Below, in pieces: positions 3,553 through 52,680 of a stretch of DNA of 64,000 nt; within the stretch, counting starts at the first letter, position 1, and the number at the start of each line of letters is the position of its first letter. The stretch is from the NCBI GenBank assembly GCA_030390025.1, contig CM059446.1, positions 38,316,001 through 38,380,000 of the forward strand, in the 5' to 3' direction. The stretch comes from Squalus acanthias. Taxonomy: Eukaryota. The notes beneath the pieces are model-generated. The model did not search any database. It was not told where the DNA came from and worked only from the letters and a program-made list of their open reading frames with translations. The position numbers were made by a program, and so were the translations under genes.

Positions 3553-3878
3553 TAGAGGTAGTGGAAGGATTTGCAGGCTGATTAACAATCTGACAGGCCG
3601 CAACGTGAATGCTCCTTCCATGGCCATAACCAGCTTTTATGTACCAGCCAGACAGGGTGGTTAGTCTATATGGCGGGAGGGGTTTATGAGCTCCCACAAC
3701 TCATTCAATGAGGGGATGGGCACCCACGCCCAGCCAAAGTGAGTATCTTGCTGGATGTCAACCCACAATTAAGAGCTGGAGCTCCGGTCTCCATTCACCA
3801 GGACTGTCTGAAGCGAGGTTCGAACCCTGCACCTCCTGACTCAGGGGCGGGGCGGCTACCTACTAATCCAAAGGCTCG
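3553..3878 (-). mobile_element. Probable degraded tRNA-headed SINE
   Basis: 3815-3878 reads on the minus strand as a tRNA-like head (GAGTCAGGAGGTGCAGGGTTCGAACC). The extent of the body is uncertain. Confidence 0.35.
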
Positions 3879-3970: not shown

Positions 3971-4572
3971 GGGTAGATTTCACGATTCATGCTTCCGGCA
4001 CAGAGCATTGCATGCTGGGAGTGTATAGCAGAAATTTTCCCAAGGAAGTGAGCGGGCCCCACATGGACAGAGAATCCTGTGGGGTCCACATGGACCAAGA
4101 ATCCTGTGGGCCCACATGGACCAAGAATCCTGTGGGGTCCACATGGACCAAGAATCCTGTGGGCCCCACATGGACCAAGAATCCTGTGGGGTCCACATGG
4201 ACAGAGAATCCTGTGGGGTCCACATGGACCAAGAATCCTGTGGGGTCCACATGGACAGAGAATCCTGTGGGGTCCACATGGACCAAGAATCCTGTGGGGT
4301 CCACATGGACAGAGAATCCTGTGTGTCCCAAATGGACAGAGAATCCCGTGGGCCCCAAATGGACAGAGAATCCCGTGGGCCCCAAATGGACAGAGAATCC
4401 TGTGGGCCCCAAATGGACAGAGAATCCTGTGTGTCCCACATGGACAGAGAATCCTGTGGGTCCCACATGGACAGAGAATCCCGTGGGTCCACTGACCTCC
4501 GCTCCCAAAATCTTGATACGTGCACCCAACATGCAAAGCTCCAGCCAGGGTGTAAATTTGTAAAATCTATCC
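3971..4572. mobile_element. Fold-back MITE-like element enclosing a minisatellite
   Basis: ~90-bp imperfect inverted arms: GGGTAGATTTCACGATT...GCATGCTGGG (3971-4058) versus CCCAACATGC...TTTGTAAAATCTATCC (4490-4572). Confidence 0.65.
4057..4492. repeat. 27-bp minisatellite, 16 units
   Basis: Unit CCACATGGAC(AG/CA)AGAATCCTGTGGGGT. One unit is 26 bp. It produces the 9-aa repeat ORFs in several frames. Confidence 0.95.
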
Positions 4573-7989: not shown

Positions 7990-8426
7990 AAGAAAGAGAG
8001 AACTTGCATTTATATAGCGCCTTTCATGCCATCCCAAAGCGCTTTACAGGCAATGAAGTACTTTTTGAAGTGTAGTCACTGTTGCAATGTAGGAAACACG
8101 GCAGCCAATTTGCACACAGCAAGCTCCCACAAACAGCAATAAGAGCATCTGTTTTAGTGATGTTGGTTAAGGGATAAATATTGGGAGAACTCGCCTGTGC
8201 TTCTTCGAAAAGTGCCATGGGATCTTTTATGTACAACTGAGTGGGAAGACGGGGCCTCAGTTTAACGTGTCATCCAAAAGTCGGCACCTCTGACAGTGCA
8301 GCACTCCTTCAGCACTGCACTGGACTGTCAGCCTAGATTATGTGCTCAGGTCTCAGGAGTGGAGCTTGAACCCACAACCTTCTGACTCAAAGGTGGGAGC
8401 GCTACCAACTAAGCCATGGCTGACAC
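7990..8426 (-). mobile_element. DeuSINE copy
   Basis: Reverse complement of the 3116/6477 family, from the head (GTGTCAGCCATGGCTTAGTTGGTAGC) to the tail. Confidence 0.85.
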
Positions 8427-20014: not shown

Positions 20015-20266
20015 AGAAAGAAAGAGCTTGCATTTATATAGCTCCTTTCATGACCTCAGGATGTCCCAAAGCGCTTTACAGCCAATTAAGTACTTTTGAA
20101 GTGTAATCATTGTTTAATGTACGAAATGCGGCAACCAATTTGCACACAGCAAGATCCCACAAACAGCAATGTGATAATGACCAGATCATTTGTTTTTAGT
20201 GATGTTGATTGAGGGATAAATATTGGCCAGGACACTGGGGATAACTCCTCTGCTCTTCTTCAAATA
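20015..20266 (-). mobile_element. DeuSINE, 3' part (split by the Penelope insertion)
   Basis: Reverse-complement SINE tail and core up to CTTCTTCAAATA. Continues in register at 23155. Confidence 0.88.
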
Positions 20267-20314
20267 TGAGAAGTCGCACAACACCAGGTTATAGTCCAAC
20301 AGATTTATTTAATT

Positions 20315-20353
20315 TTACAAGCTTTCGGAGCAGTTCGCTCCTTCGTCAGGTAA
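20315..20353 (-). ncRNA. Minimal hammerhead ribozyme (left arm copy)
   Basis: Reverse complement of 23025-23063. Confidence 0.78.
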
Positions 20354-20574
20354 GTTAGCAGTGAGAGAATCTCCCAGAATTCACAATTTGAACACAGACA
20401 AAATCTATTCACATCTTTCCCTACATCAAAGAGCACAGCCAAGACAATGAGATGTGTCCCAGGGGGTCCAACGTGTCAAACCACCTGCTGGCTGCATATC
20501 CTGTCAATTTGTGTAGGTTCTTGTGTTAGTCTTTTTAAAAAAAAACACCTGGGAAGACCGGCCATGATGTCAAG

Positions 20575-21609
20575 TCACGTTCTGTATCGTGACATGAACC
20601 CGATATCGCGATTGAGGCCATCCTCATGAGTGCGGAACTTGGCTATCAGTTTCTGCTCTATGATTTTGCGCTGTCGTGTATCTCGAAGGCTGCCTTGGAG
20701 AACGCTTACCCGCAGATCCGAGGCTGAATGCCCCTGGCTGCTGAAGTGTTCCCCGACTGGGAGGCAACCCTCCTGCCTGGCGATTGTTGCGCGGTGTCCG
20801 TTCATACGTTGTCTCAGTGTCTGCATGGTCTCGCCGATGTACCATGCTCTGGAGCATCCTTTACTGCAACGTATCAGGTAGACAACGTTGGCCGAGTCAC
20901 ATGAGTATGTACCGTGTACCTGGTGGGTAGTGTCCTCACGTGTGATGATGGTATCTCTGTCCATGATTTGGCATGTCTTGCAGAGGTTGCCATGGCAGGG
21001 TTGTGTGGTGTCTTGGTTGCTGTTCTCCTGAAAGATGGGTAATCTGCTGCGAACGATGGTACTTTTGAGGTTAGGCGGCTGCTTGAAGGCGAGTAGTGGA
21101 GGCGTGGGGATGGCCTTAGCAAGGTGTTCGTCATCATCGATGACATGTTGAAGGCTGCGAAGAACATGGCATAGTTTTTCCGCTCCGGGGAAGTACTGGA
21201 CGACGTAGGGTACTCTGTTGGTTGTGTCCCGTGTTCGTCTTCTGAGGAGGTCTATGCGGTTTTTCGCTGTGGCCCGTCGGAACTGTCGATCGACGAGTCG
21301 AGCGTCATATCCCGTTCTTACGAGGGCGTCTTTCAGTGTCCGTAGGTGTCCATCGCGTTCCACCTCGTCTGAACAGATCCTGTGTATTCGCAGGGCTTGT
21401 CCATAGGGGATGGCTTCTTTAACGTGGTTAGGGTGGAAGCTGGAGAAGTGGAGCATCGTGAGGTTGTCCGTGGGCTTGCGGTAGAGTGAAGTGCTGAGGC
21501 GTCCGTCTTTGATGGAGATTCGTGTGTCCAAGAATGAAACCGATTCTGAGGAGTAGTCCATGGTGAATTTGATGGTGGGATGGAACCTGTTGATGCTATC
21601 GTGTAGTCC
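20575..21609 (-). CDS. Inverted, 5'-truncated PLE ORF: RT C-terminal part + GIY-YIG endonuclease
   Basis: Open frame (within ORF 20575-21633) identical to the plus copy except KFT/KLT and EVE/EEE. Lacks the YIDD motif. Confidence 0.85.
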   Translation of the reverse strand, partial: GLHDSINRFHPTIKFTMDYSSESVSFLDTRISIKDGRLSTSLYRKPTDNLTMLHFSSFHPNHVKEAIPYGQALRIHRICSDEVERDGHLRTLKDALVRTGYDARLVDRQFRRATAKNRIDLLRRRTRDTTNRVPYVVQYFPGAEKLCHVLRSLQHVIDDDEHLAKAIPTPPLLAFKQPPNLKSTIVRSRLPIFQENSNQDTTQPCHGNLCKTCQIMDRDTIITREDTTHQVHGTYSCDSANVVYLIRCSKGCSRAWYIGETMQTLRQRMNGHRATIARQEGCLPVGEHFSSQGHSASDLRVSVLQGSLRDTRQRKIIEQKLIAKFRTHEDGLNRDIGFMSRYRT

Positions 21610-21614
21610 AAATC

Positions 21615-22802
21615 GTGGGGACCAAATTCGCACCCCAATACGCCAACATCTTCATGCACAAGTTCGAGCAAGACTTCTTCGCTGCACAGGACCTCCAACC
21701 AACGCTATACACCAGATACATCGACGACATCTTCTTCCTTTGGACCCACGGCGAAGGATCACTGAAAGGACTACACGATAGCATCAACAGGTTCCATCCC
21801 ACCATCAAACTCACCATGGACTACTCCTCAGAATCGGTTTCATTCTTGGACACACGAATCTCCATCAAAGACGGACGCCTCAGCACTTCACTCTACCGCA
21901 AGCCCACGGACAACCTCACGATGCTCCACTTCTCCAGCTTCCACCCTAACCACGTTAAAGAAGCCATCCCCTATGGACAAGCCCTGCGAATACACAGGAT
22001 CTGCTCAGACGAGGAGGAACGTGATGGACACCTACGGACACTGAAAGACGCCCTCGTAAGAACGGGATATGACGCTCGACTCGTCGATCGACAGTTCCGA
22101 CGGGCCACAGCAAAAAACCGCATAGACCTCCTCAGAAGACGAACACGGGACACAACCAACAGAGTACCCTACGTCGTCCAGTACTTCCCCGGAGCGGAAA
22201 AACTATGCCATGTTCTTCGCAGCCTTCAACATGTCATCGATGATGACGAACACCTTGCTAAGGCCATCCCCACGCCTCCACTACTCGCCTTCAAGCAGCC
22301 GCCTAACCTCAAAAGTACCATCGTTCGCAGCAGATTACCCATCTTTCAGGAGAACAGCAACCAAGACACCACACAACCCTGCCATGGCAACCTCTGCAAG
22401 ACATGCCAAATCATGGACAGAGATACCATCATCACACGTGAGGACACTACCCACCAGGTACACGGTACATACTCATGTGACTCGGCCAACGTTGTCTACC
22501 TGATACGTTGCAGTAAAGGATGCTCCAGAGCATGGTACATCGGCGAGACCATGCAGACACTGAGACAACGTATGAACGGACACCGCGCAACAATCGCCAG
22601 GCAGGAGGGTTGCCTCCCAGTCGGGGAACACTTCAGCAGCCAGGGGCATTCAGCCTCGGATCTGCGGGTAAGCGTTCTCCAAGGCAGCCTTCGAGATACA
22701 CGACAGCGCAAAATCATAGAGCAGAAACTGATAGCCAAGTTCCGCACTCATGAGGATGGCCTCAATCGCGATATCGGGTTCATGTCACGATACAGAACGT
22801 GA
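21615..22802 (+). CDS. 5'-truncated PLE ORF: RT (motifs B-E, thumb) + Cys linker + GIY-YIG endonuclease
   Basis: 395 aa: GTKFAPQYANIFM, RYIDDIF, FLD, YRKPT, linker CHGNLCKTC (Neptune-type), VVYLIRC...WYIGET...LRQRMNGH, IEQKLI, GLN. No stops, but the N-terminal RT motifs are absent. Confidence 0.92.
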   Translation: MGTKFAPQYANIFMHKFEQDFFAAQDLQPTLYTRYIDDIFFLWTHGEGSLKGLHDSINRFHPTIKLTMDYSSESVSFLDTRISIKDGRLSTSLYRKPTDNLTMLHFSSFHPNHVKEAIPYGQALRIHRICSDEEERDGHLRTLKDALVRTGYDARLVDRQFRRATAKNRIDLLRRRTRDTTNRVPYVVQYFPGAEKLCHVLRSLQHVIDDDEHLAKAIPTPPLLAFKQPPNLKSTIVRSRLPIFQENSNQDTTQPCHGNLCKTCQIMDRDTIITREDTTHQVHGTYSCDSANVVYLIRCSKGCSRAWYIGETMQTLRQRMNGHRATIARQEGCLPVGEHFSSQGHSASDLRVSVLQGSLRDTRQRKIIEQKLIAKFRTHEDGLNRDIGFMSRYRT

Positions 22803-23024
22803 CTTGACATCATGGCCGGTCTTCCCAGGTGTTTTTTTTTTAAAAAGACTAACACAAGAACCTACACAAATTGACAGGATATGCAGCCAGCAGGTCGTTT
22901 GACACGTTGGACCCCCTGGGACACATCTCATTGTCTTGGCTGTGCTCTTTGATGTAGGGAAAGATGTGAATAGATTTTGTCTGTGTTCAAATTGTGAATT
23001 CTGGGAGATTCTCTCACTGCTAAC

Positions 23025-23063
23025 TTACCTGACGAAGGAGCGAACTGCTCCGAAAGCTTGTAA
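23025..23063 (+). ncRNA. Minimal hammerhead ribozyme in the PLE 3' region
   Basis: UUAC-CUGACGA-A-GGAGC-GAACU-GCUCC-GAAA-GC-UU-GUAA: stem I UUAC/GUAA, perfect 5-bp stem II, AGCU palindrome. Predicted cut after 23059. AATAAA follows at 23069-23074. Confidence 0.8.
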
Positions 23064-23154
23064 AATTAAATAAATCTGTTGGACTATAACCTGGTGTTGT
23101 GCGACTTCTCATTTTTGTCCACCCCAGTCCAACGCCGGCATCTCCACATCATGA

Positions 23155-23348
23155 CTTCTTCAAATAGTGCTACGGTATCTTTTACGTCCACCTGACAGGG
23201 CAAACAGGGACTCGGTTCAACGTATCATCTGAAAGACGGCACCTCCAGCAGTGCAGCACTCCCTCAGTACTGCACTGCAGTGTCAGCCTGAAATTTGTGC
23301 TCAAGTCTTTGGAGTGGGACTTGAACCCACAACCTTCTGACTCAGAGG
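23155..23348 (-). mobile_element. DeuSINE, 5' part (continuation of 20015-20266)
   Basis: CAAATAGTGC...GGGACTTGAACCCACAACCTTCTGACTCAGAGG, the reverse-complement core and tRNA head. Confidence 0.88.
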
Positions 23349-24677: not shown

Positions 24678-25181
24678 AGGACCTCACTGTCCTCGGCCTC
24701 GTGCATTGTTCCACGGAAGCTCAGCGTAAGCTCGAGGAACAGCACCTCATCTTTCGTTTAGGCACTTTACAGCCTTCCGGACTCAATATCGAGTTCAACA
24801 ATTTCAGATCATAACCCCGGCCCCCACCATATATATATACATTTTATCCACCATTTTGGTTCGTGCCTTTTTCCTTTTTTTCTCTCTCTCCCCCTACGAC
24901 AGCCGTCTCTCATTCTGCCAGCATTTCACACTTCAACTTTTGTTTCTTAACCTGTCCCATTACCATCTCGTCTTGCCTTGAGCATCTCTTAATGTCTCTA
25001 CTTACCATAGTTATCTCCCCCACCCCGCCTCCCCCCAGCCTCCCCCTTGCATTTTTATCTGTTTCATTTCCTGCTCTTTTCTCAGTTCTGACGAAGGGTT
25101 TCGACCTGAAACGTTAACTCTGTTTCTCTCTCCACGGATGTTGCCTGGCCTGCTGAGTTTTTCCAGCGTTTTCTGTTGTTG
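24678..25181 (+). mobile_element. Penelope-like fragment (family 2), 5'-truncated, tail-less
   Basis: VLGLVHCSTEAQRKLEEQHLIFRLGTLQPSGLNIEFNNF is near-identical to the C-termini at 28325 and 30410. Ends at TTCTGTTGTT. Candidate 11-bp TSD TCTC(T/C)ATGGTG at 24667-24677 and 25182-25192. Confidence 0.85.
25084..25119 (+). ncRNA. Minimal hammerhead ribozyme
   Basis: AGUU-CUGACGA-A-GGGU-UUCG-ACCU-GAAA-CG-UU-AACU: UUCG-capped stem II, ACGU palindrome. Confidence 0.78.
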
Positions 25182-25699
25182 TCTCCATGGTGTAGTTCAG
25201 TGGTCCTCAACCATATGAGTTGTGACCCTCCAGGGGGTTCATGGGCACCCGTCAAGGGTTTACCACCACTCTACTGCCTGATGCACCCGTCATGCCAGTC
25301 CTGGCTCCACCTTGTGCCTAACTCTGTTGCTTCACATCAGGAGTTGAGTGCTGTAGACAGGAATTCCTGACGTTATGATCGTTTTTGCAATATCAGGTCA
25401 ATTCTTCCACAGGTGGCAGAAGGCTCCTTCTTGGAGCAAAGCAACAGCACTGGGTAGTAGCTGGAATCAGGACCGGCAAGATGCAGTGAATGAGGGAGGG
25501 ACAGTGCCTGCGTGAACATGGGACAGGGCAAGAAAAAGTGCCTCCGTGAATAAGGAATGGGTCAAAGAAAATAGTATCTCTGTGAAAGGGGAAGGACTTT
25601 TAGTATTTAGTTAGTCATGGATACATTAAGGTTCTGAGGTAAGGCAATTGCCAAAATTCTAATTTCACAAAAAGAGGGTCCTAACATGCAAACAGGTTA

Positions 25700-28009: not shown

Positions 28010-28064
28010 GCTGGATGCTTGGTCAATTGAAATTCAAGACTGAAATCGACAGATTTTTATTAGG
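28010..28064 (+). mobile_element. CR1/HER1 3' fragment, left of the Penelope insertion
   Basis: TTCAAGACTGAAATCGACAGATTTTT (FKTEIDRF). Continues at 30709. Confidence 0.7.
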
Positions 28065-28128
28065 AATAACAACAGAAAATGCTGGAAACACTCTGCAGGC
28101 CAGGCAGCATCCGTGGAGAGAGAAACAG

Positions 28129-28165
28129 AGTTAACGTTTCAGGTCTGGGACCCTTCATCAGAACT
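28129..28165 (-). ncRNA. Minimal hammerhead ribozyme (left arm)
   Basis: Minus strand AGUU-CUGAUGA-A-GGGUC-CCA-GACCU-GAAA-CG-UU-AACU. Confidence 0.78.
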
Positions 28166-28324
28166 GGAAAAAGCTGGAGATGTAACAGATATTAAGCAGG
28201 TGCAGAGACAGGGAGGGGAGGAAGGAATTGAAGGAACATACTGTGCTTAGATAAGAGGCAGGAAAGATAAAATGTTGCAAATGGGGATGGCAAAATCATA
28301 CAGCATGAAAAATAGGGGCAGGGG

Positions 28325-29874
28325 TTATAGTTTGAAATTGTTGAACTCAATGTTGAGTCCAGAAGGCTGTAAAGTGCCTAATCGAAAGATGAGGTGCTGT
28401 TCCTCGAGCTTACGTTGAGCTTCATTGGAACAATGTAAGAGGCCGAGGACAGAGATCAGAGTGGGAGTGAGGTGGAGAATTAAAGTGACAGGCGACCGGA
28501 AGCTCAGGGTCACCCTTATAGACTGAACGGAGGTGTTCCGCAAAGCGGTCGCCCAATCTGCGTTTGGTCTCCCCAATGTAGAGGAGACCGCATCGTGAGC
28601 AGCGAATACAGTATACTAAATTACAAGAAGTACAAGTAAATCGCTGTTTCACCTGGAAGGGGTGTTTGGGGCCCTGGACAGTGGGAAGGGAGGAGGTAAA
28701 AGGGCAGGTGTTGCATCTCCTGCGCTTGCACGGGAAGCTGCCGGGCGAAGGGGAAGGGCTGATTGAGGAGTGGACCAGTGTGTCGTGGAGGTAGCGGTCC
28801 CTTCGGAATGCTGAAAGGGGAGATGAGGGGAAGATGCGTTTGGTGGTGGGATCACGTTGGAGGTGGCGGAAATGGCGGAGGATGATCCGTTGAATGTGGA
28901 GGCTGGTGGGGTGAAAGGTGAGGACAAGGGGAACCCTATCGTGGTTCTAGGAGAGAGGAGAAGGGGTGAGAGCAGAAGTGCGGGAAATGGAACGGACACG
29001 GTCAAGGGCCGTGTCAACCACAGTAGATGGGAATCCTCGGTTGAGGAAAAAGGAAGACATGTCAGAAGCACTGGTATGGAAGGTGGCATCGTCAGAACAG
29101 ACGCGGTGGAGACAGAGAAACTGGGAGAATGGAATAGAGTCCTTACAGGAGGCGGGGTTGGAGGAAGTGTAGTCCAGGTAGCTGTGGGAGTCAGTAGGCT
29201 TGGAGTGGACGTTTGTCGAAAACCGATCGCCAGAAATGGAGACGGAGAAGTCAAGGAAGGGAAGAGAAGAGTCGAATATGGACCATGTGAAGGTGAGGGA
29301 AGGGTGGAAATTAGAAGTAAAGTGAATGAACTTATCTAGTTCAGGGCGAGAGCAGGAAACGGCACCGATACAGTCATCGATGTACCGGAAAAAGAGGTGA
29401 GGGAGGGGACCTGAGTAGGACTGGAACAAAGAATGTTCCACATATCCCATGAAAAGGCAGGCACAGCTAGGGCCCATGCAGGTTCCCATAGCAACACCTT
29501 TAATTTGGAGGAAGTGAGTGGAGTCAGAGGTGAAGTTCTTCAATGTGAGAACAAGTTCAGCCAGGTTGACGAGGCTCGTGGTGGATTGGAACTTGTTGGG
29601 CCTCTGTTCAAAGAAGAAGCGGAGCGCCCTCAGGCCGTCCTGGTGGGGGATGGAGGTGTAGAGGGATTGGACATCCATAGTTAAAAGGAGACAGTTGGGG
29701 CCAGGAAACTGGAAACTGTTAAAGTGGCGGAGGGTGTCGGAAGAGCCGCGAATGTAGGTGGGAATAGACTGGACAAGGGGAGAAAAAATAGAGTCGAGAT
29801 AGGAAGAGATAAGTTCCGTGGGGCAAGAACAGACTGAAACGATGGGTCTACCAGGGCAGTCCTGTTTCTGGATC
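28325..29874 (-). pseudogene. Frameshifted PLE RT + GIY-YIG ORF
   Basis: MDVQSLYTSIP, KGVAMG, RYIDDC, FLD (ORF 28947-29678), LVYCIRCSRCGLLYIGETKRRLGDRFAEH (28422-28652) and the GLN C-terminus (28325-28576) lie in different frames. Confidence 0.9.
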
Positions 29875-30410
29875 CCACCACCAAACGCATCTTCCCCTCA
29901 CCTCCCCTTTCAGCATTCTGAAGGGACCGCTCTCTCCGCGACACCCTGGTCCACTCCTCAATCACCCCTAACAGCCCTTCCCCTTTGCCCGGCACCTTCC
30001 CGTGCAAGCGCAGGAGATGCAACACCTGCCCTTTTACCTCCTCCCTTCCCACTGTCCAGGGCTCCAAAGACCCCTTCCAGGTGAAACAATGATTTACTTG
30101 TACTTCTTGTAATTTAGTAAACTGTATTCGCTGCTCACGATGCGGTCTCCTCTACATTGGGGAGACCAAATGCAGATTGGGCGACCGCTTTGCGGAACAC
30201 CTCCATTCAGTCCGTAAGGGTGACCCTGAGCTTCCGGTCGCCTGTTACTTAAATTCTCCACCTCACTCCCACTCTGATTTCTCTGTCCTCGGCCTCTTAC
30301 ATTGTTCCAATGAAGCTCAACGTAAGCTCGAGGAACAGCACCTCATCTTTCGATTAGGCACTTTACAGCCTTCTGGACTCAACATTGAGTTCAACAATTT
30401 CAAACTATAA
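29871..30410 (+). pseudogene. Inverted-arm PLE GIY-YIG fragment with premature stops
   Basis: GTFPCKRRRCNTCP linker and YIGET are present. TGA (~30090) and TAA (~30118) replace CGA and TAC of the other arm. Confidence 0.85.
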
Positions 30411-30569
30411 CCCCTGCCCCTATTTTTCATGCTGTATGATTTTGCCATTCCCATTTGCAACATTTTATCTTTCCTGCCTCTTATCTAAGCACAGTATATT
30501 CCTTCAATTCTTTCCTCCCCTCCCTGTCTCTGCACCTGTTTAATATCTGTTACATCTCCAGCTTTTTCC

Positions 30570-30606
30570 AGTTCTGATGAAGGGTCCCAGACCTGAAACG
30601 TTAGCT
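30570..30606 (+). ncRNA. Minimal hammerhead ribozyme (right arm)
   Basis: AGUU-CUGAUGA-A-GGGUC-CCA-GACCU-GAAA-CG-UU-AGCU. Predicted cut after 30602. Confidence 0.78.
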
Positions 30607-30708
30607 CTGTTTCTCTCTCCACGGATGCTGCCTGGCCTGCTGAGTGTTTCCAGCGTTTTCTGTTGTTATTTCAGATTTCCAGCATCTGCAGTATTTTGCT
30701 ATTGTATT

Positions 30709-30848
30709 AGATTTTTATTAGGTATGTGTATCAAGGGATATGGATCAAAGGCGGGTAAATAAAGTGGAGTTACAAATCAGCCATGATCTAATTGACTGGA
30801 GGAACAGGCTCGAGGGGCTGAATGTCCTACTCCTGTTCCTATGTTTCT
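30709..30848 (+). mobile_element. CR1/HER1 3' terminus, right of the Penelope insertion
   Basis: ATCAGCCATGATCT...GGCTCGAGGGGCTGAATG...CCTACTCCTGTTCCTATGTT. Confidence 0.8.
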
Positions 30849-51529: not shown

Positions 51530-51688
51530 TAATACAAAAGCAAAATACTGCGGATGCTGGAAATCTGAAATAAAAACAGAAAATGCTGGAAATACTCAGC
51601 AGGCCAGGCAGCATCTGTGAAGAGAGAAGCAGAGTTAACGTTTCTGAAACGTTAACTTGGTTTTTATCTCCACAGAAACTGTCTGACT
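51530..51688. mobile_element. Miniature fold-back Penelope remnant (family 2 terminus)
   Basis: 51530-51644 is the reverse complement of ~30595-30708, including the tail. Centre AGTTAACGTTTC-T-GAAACGTTAACT (51633-51657). A diverged forward arm continues to ~51688. Confidence 0.8.
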
Positions 51689-52269: not shown

Positions 52270-52680
52270 TGTGTTCATATTCTTCGTATGTCCCAAAGTG
52301 CTTCATAGTCAATTAATTGTAAGTGTAAGCTCTGTTGTTAAGGAGACAACTGCCACAGCCAATTTGTGCACAGCAATATCCCAGAAACAGCAAATAAGAC
52401 AAATTACCAGTTAATCCGTTTTGGTTGAGGGCTGAATGTTGGTCAGGTGACCAGGAAAACTCTGCTCTTCTTCAAATAGTGAATGGGATCTTTCACATCC
52501 ACCCGAATAGCCAGACAGGGCCTCAGTTTAATGTCTAATTTGAAAGACTGCTCCGCCAACAAAATTGCGTTCCTCAGTACTGCATCGGATTATCAGCCTA
52601 AATTACCTGCACAAGTCCGGGAGTAGGGCTTGGACCCATAATTCTGACTCAGAGGCAAGAATGTTACCACTGAGTCAAGC
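52270..52680 (-). mobile_element. Degraded DeuSINE
   Basis: CAGCCAATTTGTGCACAGCAA, CTGCTCTTCTTCAAATAGTG and TTCTGACTCAGAGGCAAG match the family in reverse. Confidence 0.75.

Follow-up and report, generated by a model that had tools for sequence, protein, structure and literature searches.

The Penelope-like elements (PLEs) of two families in the window, a 64,000-nt stretch of Squalus acanthias DNA (contig CM059446.1, positions 38,316,001 to 38,380,000), are of the Neptune/Nematis type, and in both families a minimal hammerhead is followed by a predicted helix of 7-9 bp that the tail closes. The ends of copies fall into two sharp classes, one on either side of the 3' strand of this helix, and inverted insertions with a target duplication showed one end of each kind in 43 of 44 cases. 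On balance, we favour the reading that the predicted helix is a landmark, probably protein-bound, that offers two priming windows, one for each nicked strand.

Each family is represented in the window by an inverted insertion, family 1 at 20267-23154 and family 2 at 28065-30708. The cuts that the earlier note had predicted, after 23059 and 30602, fit the minimal-hammerhead pattern. The breakpoints it had placed in the two loops were confirmed by target duplications of 12 and 14 bp, which set the boundaries of the insertions and leave the short-arm ends at the equivalents of 23111 and 30670. The parts of the insertions, and further 3' ends in the window, are as follows (coordinates, strand, feature).

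20255-20266, no strand: family-1 left target-site duplication, 12 bp (same 12-mer at 23155-23166)
20267-21609, minus: family-1 inverted arm without tail, 3' end at site 1 (equivalent to 23111)
21594-22802, plus: family-1 ORF remnant, 5'-truncated, with the RT C-terminal part, thumb, CxxC linker and GIY-YIG-type end
23025-23063, plus: family-1 hammerhead, minimal, type I, stem III palindromic; cut predicted after 23059
23077-23085, plus: predicted family-1 helix, 5' strand, register a (the one seen in the earlier note)
23091-23099, plus: predicted family-1 competing 5' strand, register b (partner 23130-23138)
23106-23118, plus: family-1 site 1, loop window of tail-less arm ends (+47 to +59 after the cut, 31 ends)
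23126-23134, plus: predicted family-1 helix, 3' strand, mid-tail
23146-23154, plus: family-1 site 2, window of tailed arm ends (+87 to +98, 29 ends)
23155-23166, no strand: family-1 right target-site duplication
28051-28064, no strand: family-2 left target-site duplication, 14 bp
28065-29870, minus: family-2 tail-less arm, the longer arm, with RT and GIY-YIG remnants, ending at site 1 (equivalent to 30670)
29871-30708, plus: family-2 tailed arm
30570-30606, plus: family-2 minimal hammerhead, predicted cut after 30602
30624-30630, plus: predicted family-2 7-bp core helix, 5' strand
30680-30686, plus: predicted family-2 7-bp core helix, 3' strand
30709-30722, no strand: family-2 right target-site duplication
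805-891, minus: further family-1 3' end, tail-less
25084-25185, plus: further family-2 3' end, tail-less
51530-51650, minus: further family-2 3' end with tail

The family-1 insertion lies within a copy of another dispersed repeat (window 8200-8393, 23155-23348 and 52483-52617). Elsewhere in the window, 3563-3637 on the minus strand matches a CPEB3/HDV-like ribozyme (49.9 bits, above the Rfam gathering score), and 4027-4539 is a minisatellite with a 27-nt unit.

Family 2 showed Pfam matches to RVT_1 and, just below the cut-off, to GIY-YIG. The family-1 fragment in the window had no Pfam match; its homologs have RVT_1 and PF26215, and ORFs of about 920 aa are found in other family-1 copies. The closest protein matches come from sharks; turtles and crocodilians also have relatives of family 1 in large numbers, with proteins among the homologs. 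Both families have tandem-unit pseudo-LTRs, an inverted truncated arm and a tail at one end, which agrees with the definition of endonuclease-bearing (EN+) PLEs, including a tail of 30-40 bp at one end (PMC8557442), and the pseudo-LTR carries, by motif, a minimal hammerhead on the sense strand. A CX2-5CxxC-type motif, missing from Penelope and Poseidon elements (PMC8557442), is present in the RT-EN linker of both and places them in the Neptune or Nematis clade. Their proteins share 31% identity and stood far apart in a quick tree built without named references. The modules have no common nucleotide match longer than 7 nt, in line with the earlier statement that the families show no evident nucleotide similarity there. 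In the shark's own genome, at least 35,788 tailed exact pattern matches were found for family 2 and 477 pattern matches for family 1, with a pattern that caught spacer variants only. A search of this genome for other PLE families returned just these two and older family-2 subfamilies, with no Poseidon-type family; the older subfamilies have the same helix letters and a spacer of varying length. No relative was found in the viral contigs searched, and Rfam covariance models gave no match at either module at E up to 1. The genome also holds a further dispersed repeat (L338, L341 and L349) with a CTGATGA...CGAAA core and common downstream sequence, which is not a standard minimal hammerhead.

All coordinates of the pairings first described proved right. 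In family 1, GTTGGACT (23078-23085) is the exact complement of AGTCCAAC (23126-23133), and a U-G pair, A-U in most copies, lengthens the helix to 23077/23134. In family 2, CGGATGCTG (30622-30630) pairs with CAGCATCTG (30680-30688), with one G-U. When each 110-nt window was compared with its dinucleotide shuffles, p was 0.003 for either helix, in a test that also scores control windows. Both pairings are present, with two amendments. Family 1 has a competing second pairing of 9 bp, register b (23091-23099 with 23130-23138), and a single base decides the predicted register: in the window copy, the pair probability was about 0.79 for register b and 0.17 for register a, whereas in a commoner variant register a was favoured (0.8 versus 0.19). 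Register b could cross register a in a pseudoknot-like manner; no covariation was found for it, and the linkers look short. In family 2, the held core is 7 bp (30624-30630 with 30680-30686), not 9, because the second pair is often mismatched: of 61 tailed copies, 11 of the second commonest form have A-C at this pair, with more in rarer forms, and in other organisms it varies without a change of its partner. The predicted pair probability of the family-2 helix in the window copy was only 0.13. Register b resembles the family-2 helix in roughly 6 of the 9 letters on each strand, and the letters that differ do so in pairs; this may be chance.

Within the shark families, the helix is invariant. 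All 9 pairs were kept in 47 of 54 tailed family-1 copies, no double change occurred among the 54, and a pattern written for one compensatory form of this helix had no match anywhere in the genome. We considered the G-C/G-U/A-U/A-C variation in the outer part of the family-2 helix as covariation and rejected it, both positions being CpG and mismatch being common. In four other organisms, loop and spacer were variable and the helix cores unchanged; for family 1, six loop positions varied and no position of either register did, in a comparison of which three runs are contigs, with rare variants lost, and the raw-read run amounts to 18 reads. Family 1 has a CGGC motif 1-20 nt beyond the helix (window 23135-23139), as do 5 of 14 relatives checked (L174, L145, L157, L159 and L179); it may be a second recognition element.

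Copies of both families end in the loop or 10-30 nt past the helix. We mapped ends at loci of the shark's own genome against natural reference copies, with anchors that see ends from about +42 onwards. Among 120 family-1 copies, 63 ended at +46 to +62 after the cut, within the loop (+27 to +66), and 49 at +89 to +104; 2 ended in the 3' strand and 6 continued in tandem. Among 109 family-2 copies, of which 30 loci had been chosen for having the tail, 47 ended in the loop (40 of these at +65 to +74), 60 at +95 to +110 and 1 in the 3' strand; 1 further copy is the reference. Just 3 of 229 copies thus ended in the helix 3' strand and the others mostly in the loop or at site 2, so the ends are not scattered. 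The single breakpoint originally described therefore holds as a cluster of ends in the loop (site 1), to which a second site must be added, 3' of the helix and outside the loop (site 2). In tandem copies the tail continues into the ORF, and there family-1 site 2 coincides with the first AUG (23151-23153); family-2 site 2 lies about 30 nt before the first AUG. Microhomology averaged 1.5 nt among site-1 ends and 1.8 nt among site-2 ends, to be read against a true chance value nearer 1, which the shuffled value of 0.55 understates; its p value is overstated because chance extension of the duplication adds about 0.4. The short microhomology at both ends, as expected of priming sites, supports such a role.

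The two kinds of end are combined in a regular way. Mutually nearest inverted pairs numbered 33 in family 1 and 18 in family 2, with a duplication of at least 10 bp in 30 and 13 of them, respectively. One tailed and one tail-less end were found in 29 of these 30 family-1 pairs and in all 13 family-2 pairs, 6 of which came from tail-selected loci; the window's family-2 insertion has the same arrangement. The 8 pairs left out comprised 6 mixed pairs (one involving a tandem 5' copy), 1 short-short pair and 1 long-long pair (again involving a tandem copy). Independent choice of ends would give about half mixed pairs (binomial p = 3e-8 for family 1). Target duplications of inverted insertions measured 10-16 bp. 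In family-1 pairs, the longer 5' reach belonged to the tail-less arm in 12 cases and to the tailed arm in 7, with no clear difference in 12, some values being blurred by an internal repeat and some loci having been chosen by protein search; in the window's family-2 insertion, the tail-less arm has about 1 kb more 5' sequence than the tailed arm. Since either arm can be longer, the arms were not copied one from the other, and simple fold-back copying is unlikely. The arms of one insertion were more alike than shuffled pairs in both families (p = 2e-4), and the variants common to both arms include private ones, which points to one RNA or identical RNAs as the source, or to later homogenisation. 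In the short inverted insertions L002, L004, L013, L021, L025, L033 and L099, the inner junction often lies in or just upstream of the hammerhead.

We sampled relatives from 80 metagenome loci and 30 genome-contig loci and scored the 28 metagenome loci with a minimal hammerhead and at least 100 nt behind it. Three diverged pairs of relatives showed compensatory changes (p 0.0004-0.014 in anchored tests); with slid anchors as a control, p < 0.05 occurred in 1 of 24. The covariation that the earlier note had asked for is thus present between diverged relatives and missing within the shark families. For L179 and L171, RNAalifold on a structure-blind alignment returned the same 8-bp helix at +20, with 8/8 pairs kept and 3 double changes; L171 gave p = 0.004 in the anchored test, and shuffling of the two-sequence alignment gave just 81/500. 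In the tree, L174 falls next to family 1 on a long branch, with a support of 89; the proteins are 39% identical, and L174 aligns with family 1 over the 3' strand. Its upstream partner matched at 8/8 (anchored p = 0.00035), and a structure-fitted reading against family 1 shows three double changes in register a. L157 and L159 share 7 pairs (p = 0.014), with two double changes by eye. The counts for L174 and L157 are structure-fitted because MAFFT did not register both strands. On two alignments the pair counts were poor: MAFFT shifted one strand in L157/L318 and L146, and one alignment had two tail-less rows. In L145, L146, L156 and L161, a 7-bp helix with one A/G wobble was the sole consensus structure, and in L147 the sequence of two tail-less relatives departs from that of the family within the helix loop.

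The helix was not found clade-wide at a fixed place. Among 8 relatives known to continue into the element, it lay at +20 to +26 in 3 and at +34 in L142; L191, L200 and L165 had a short or late helix only, and L150 had none. A mismatch interrupts the helix in L318, and single-sequence folding gave low pair probabilities for L156, L161 and L170 (0.01). The spacer between cut and helix, previously described as fixed, ranges from 10 to 56 nt across families and is mostly 17-33 nt; it is 17-27 nt in the majority of positive cases, with other values of 10 (L170), 32-35 (L157, L174, L142 and L191) and 56 (L200). The hammerhead is probably a neighbour of the helix and not the ruler. Helix scoring covered minimal hammerheads. 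About twelve EN+ loci (L181, L187, L193, L201, L202, L209-L211, L213, L215, L219 and L220) have a different hammerhead, of a long-stem-III type without the palindromic stem III; these fall mostly on one tree branch, and a long helix III seems present in L209 and L215. Repeats L296-L315, without a hammerhead, were excluded. Two endonuclease-less elements with a minimal hammerhead, L292 and L317, showed no such helix. L292-L295 (contig CBDBJN010000001.1) form a tandem array of endonuclease-less PLE-like units of about 3.9 kb with a minimal hammerhead inside a bacterial MAG, where the array is probably host DNA; in L317 (2546-2728), an endonuclease-less PLE-like ORF precedes a minimal hammerhead and telomere-like CCCTAA repeats.

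A bulk shuffle test was dropped as main evidence, since upstream controls, rich in GC palindromes, score equally: p <= 0.05 was reached by 5/23 post-cut windows versus 8/26 upstream controls. EN+ loci found later scored in 2/6 cases under a narrow rule and 4/6 under a wide rule, and a rule adjusted afterwards gave 11/28 versus 14/130 for controls that overlap one another (p 0.08 by the Mann-Whitney test).

The anole Poseidon element PAc shows a comparable layout. Two internal RT starts flank its tail, both target strands are nicked and extended, and an RT dimer is predicted (Frangieh et al. 2024, PMC11167929). In its printed template we found, by eye, the cut, 20 nt, CAUGGCC, a 37-nt loop and GGCCAUG. 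By the same by-eye count, the main start (ORF 111-118) lies 11-18 nt past this 7-bp helix; by arithmetic, a second start 30-40 nt before it would lie within the loop. Thus in PAc, as in the shark families, a minimal hammerhead is followed by a tail of 30-45 nt with a start or end site on either side, and both strands are used. The PAc AUG is upstream of the helix, which is coding sequence. The hammerhead of PAc is protein-assisted and its catalysis dispensable. The element also needs RNA as far as ORF +172 (+119 to +172), over 50 nt beyond the second site (PMC11167929), so the helix is not the whole signal. That report leaves the later steps of insertion unvalidated. It has an 'AC-rich stem loop' at the main start; its text is without a tail-closed helix, conservation, covariation, helix mutants or the one-of-each rule, and the drawings in its Fig. 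S1B and S2C may include the helix. The layout is accordingly not limited to Neptune-type elements, to which the earlier note had restricted it.

From the observed end classes, pairing of ends, duplications and covariation, we infer the following course of insertion. The tail would pair back to form a short helix within the RNP, and the 3' strand of this helix would be flanked by two single-stranded windows, the loop and the stretch just past the helix. The endonuclease would make two nicks about 12-13 bp apart; the 3' end of one nick would prime in the loop (site 1) and that of the other past the helix (site 2), with the exact register of each primer set by one to three base pairs. Both arms would be first-strand cDNAs from target-primed reverse transcription, made by an RT (a predicted dimer in the anole element) that copies one RNA twice or two identical RNAs. 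Joined head to head, the two cDNAs would yield an inverted insertion with the tail at one end only.

In twin priming of L1, two nicks prime two cDNAs and an inversion results, with the second priming at a variable upstream site and arms that do not overlap. Unlike those of L1, the arms of the PLE insertions both cover one region, copied from two fixed sites that are some 40 nt apart. In R2, structured cis RNA of the 3'UTR directs target-primed reverse transcription, which starts at the RNA 3' end. It is conceivable, as a tentative extension, that Poseidon and Neptune-type EN+ PLEs share a helix-closed RNA core, defined by structure and comparable to the enclosed template of telomerase RNA, from which a bound RT dimer launches two coupled priming events, one on each target strand.

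The end classes and their pairing also bear on other readings of the helix. It is unlikely, though it deserves weight, that the helix is real but serves the translation or stability of the uncapped RNA left by hammerhead cleavage, with the starts set otherwise and lying near the helix because the pseudo-LTR is compact. The module does form the 5' leader of the tandem unit that follows, site 2 is at the first AUG in family 1, an AUG adjoins the helix in L191, L200 and L170, and hammerhead cleavage can drive cap-independent translation in viruses (PMC13725137). However, the distance of the AUG past the helix differs (about 17 nt in family 1 and about 55 nt in family 2, and it is upstream in the anole element), whereas the ends hold their place relative to the helix, and the one-of-each rule would be left unexplained. 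We also think it improbable that the helix serves RNP assembly or protein-assisted folding of the hammerhead while the starts are set by local sequence (U/A/C-rich tracts, microhomology) or a downstream binding site. Other U-rich tracts nearby do not attract ends, and just 3 of 229 copies end in the 3' strand; moreover, the layout is the same although the shark families have a U-rich loop and the anole element an AC-rich one. In favour of such a reading are the microhomology at both ends, loops that are U/A-rich in most families, and the need of the anole element for ORF +119 to +172 and for protein at its hammerhead (PMC11167929).

It is very unlikely that the pairings have no selected role and are chance, or relics that old inverted duplications left at element ends. 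PLE ends readily become inverted, helices of equal strength occur in control UTR windows, the tail of family 1 can pair in two registers and several families are without the helix; but three independent diverged pairs keep the pairing despite changed letters, and the helix cores are invariant and the loops variable across organisms and families. Hardly any credence is left for site 1 as a stop, at which a tailed cDNA that has folded back and copied itself would halt at the DNA form of the helix. Private variants shared by the arms fit such copying, and self-priming has been proposed for PLE inversions (PMC3846280), but the tail-less arm often has much more 5' sequence, which is impossible for a copy and largely refutes this origin, and in vitro both sites are starts (PMC11167929). 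We therefore retain the helix as a landmark for two priming windows as the favoured reading.

The PLE tail, the pseudo-LTR, the minimal hammerhead and the two start sites are already published, and the background given in the earlier note, namely pseudo-LTR hammerheads, short tails and an internal RT start in the Poseidon clade, agrees with the literature. That the tail is often at one end only has also been stated (PMC8557442). The hammerheads described by Cervera and De la Pena (2014, PMC4209133) likewise have a type-I core and a loopless palindromic stem III on the sense strand in the pseudo-LTR; in the parts of that report consulted there is no downstream structure, whereas the present helix lies entirely 3' of the cut. 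In the literature covered, with many subscription papers and the drawings of the PAc supplement outside its scope, we found neither a conserved tail-closed helix nor the one-of-each rule. Telomerase RNA has a core-enclosing helix (Mefford et al. 2020, PMC7685517) that resembles the predicted PLE helix in being short and long-range, in closing a loop with the start of copying and in depending on structure more than on sequence. The PLE module differs in having no template repeat, template-boundary element or shown pseudoknot, and a second start outside the loop; we offer the likeness as an analogy and claim no homology.

The findings bear on how PLEs choose internal starts, why their tail is found at one end and why they are so often inverted. 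With a 7-bp helix in the PAc template and the near-strict rule seen in 44 natural insertions, point mutants could be assayed in an existing system. If Poseidon and Neptune-type elements do share an RNA core, it would account at once for the tail and for the head-to-head inversions. Since PLE RTs are the sister group of TERT (PMC8557442), a helix-enclosed start would bear on the origin of telomerase RNA architecture; it would also bear on the use of PLE proteins in gene writing, and the PLE RNA core would, if real, be the closest counterpart of the telomerase RNA core among mobile elements.
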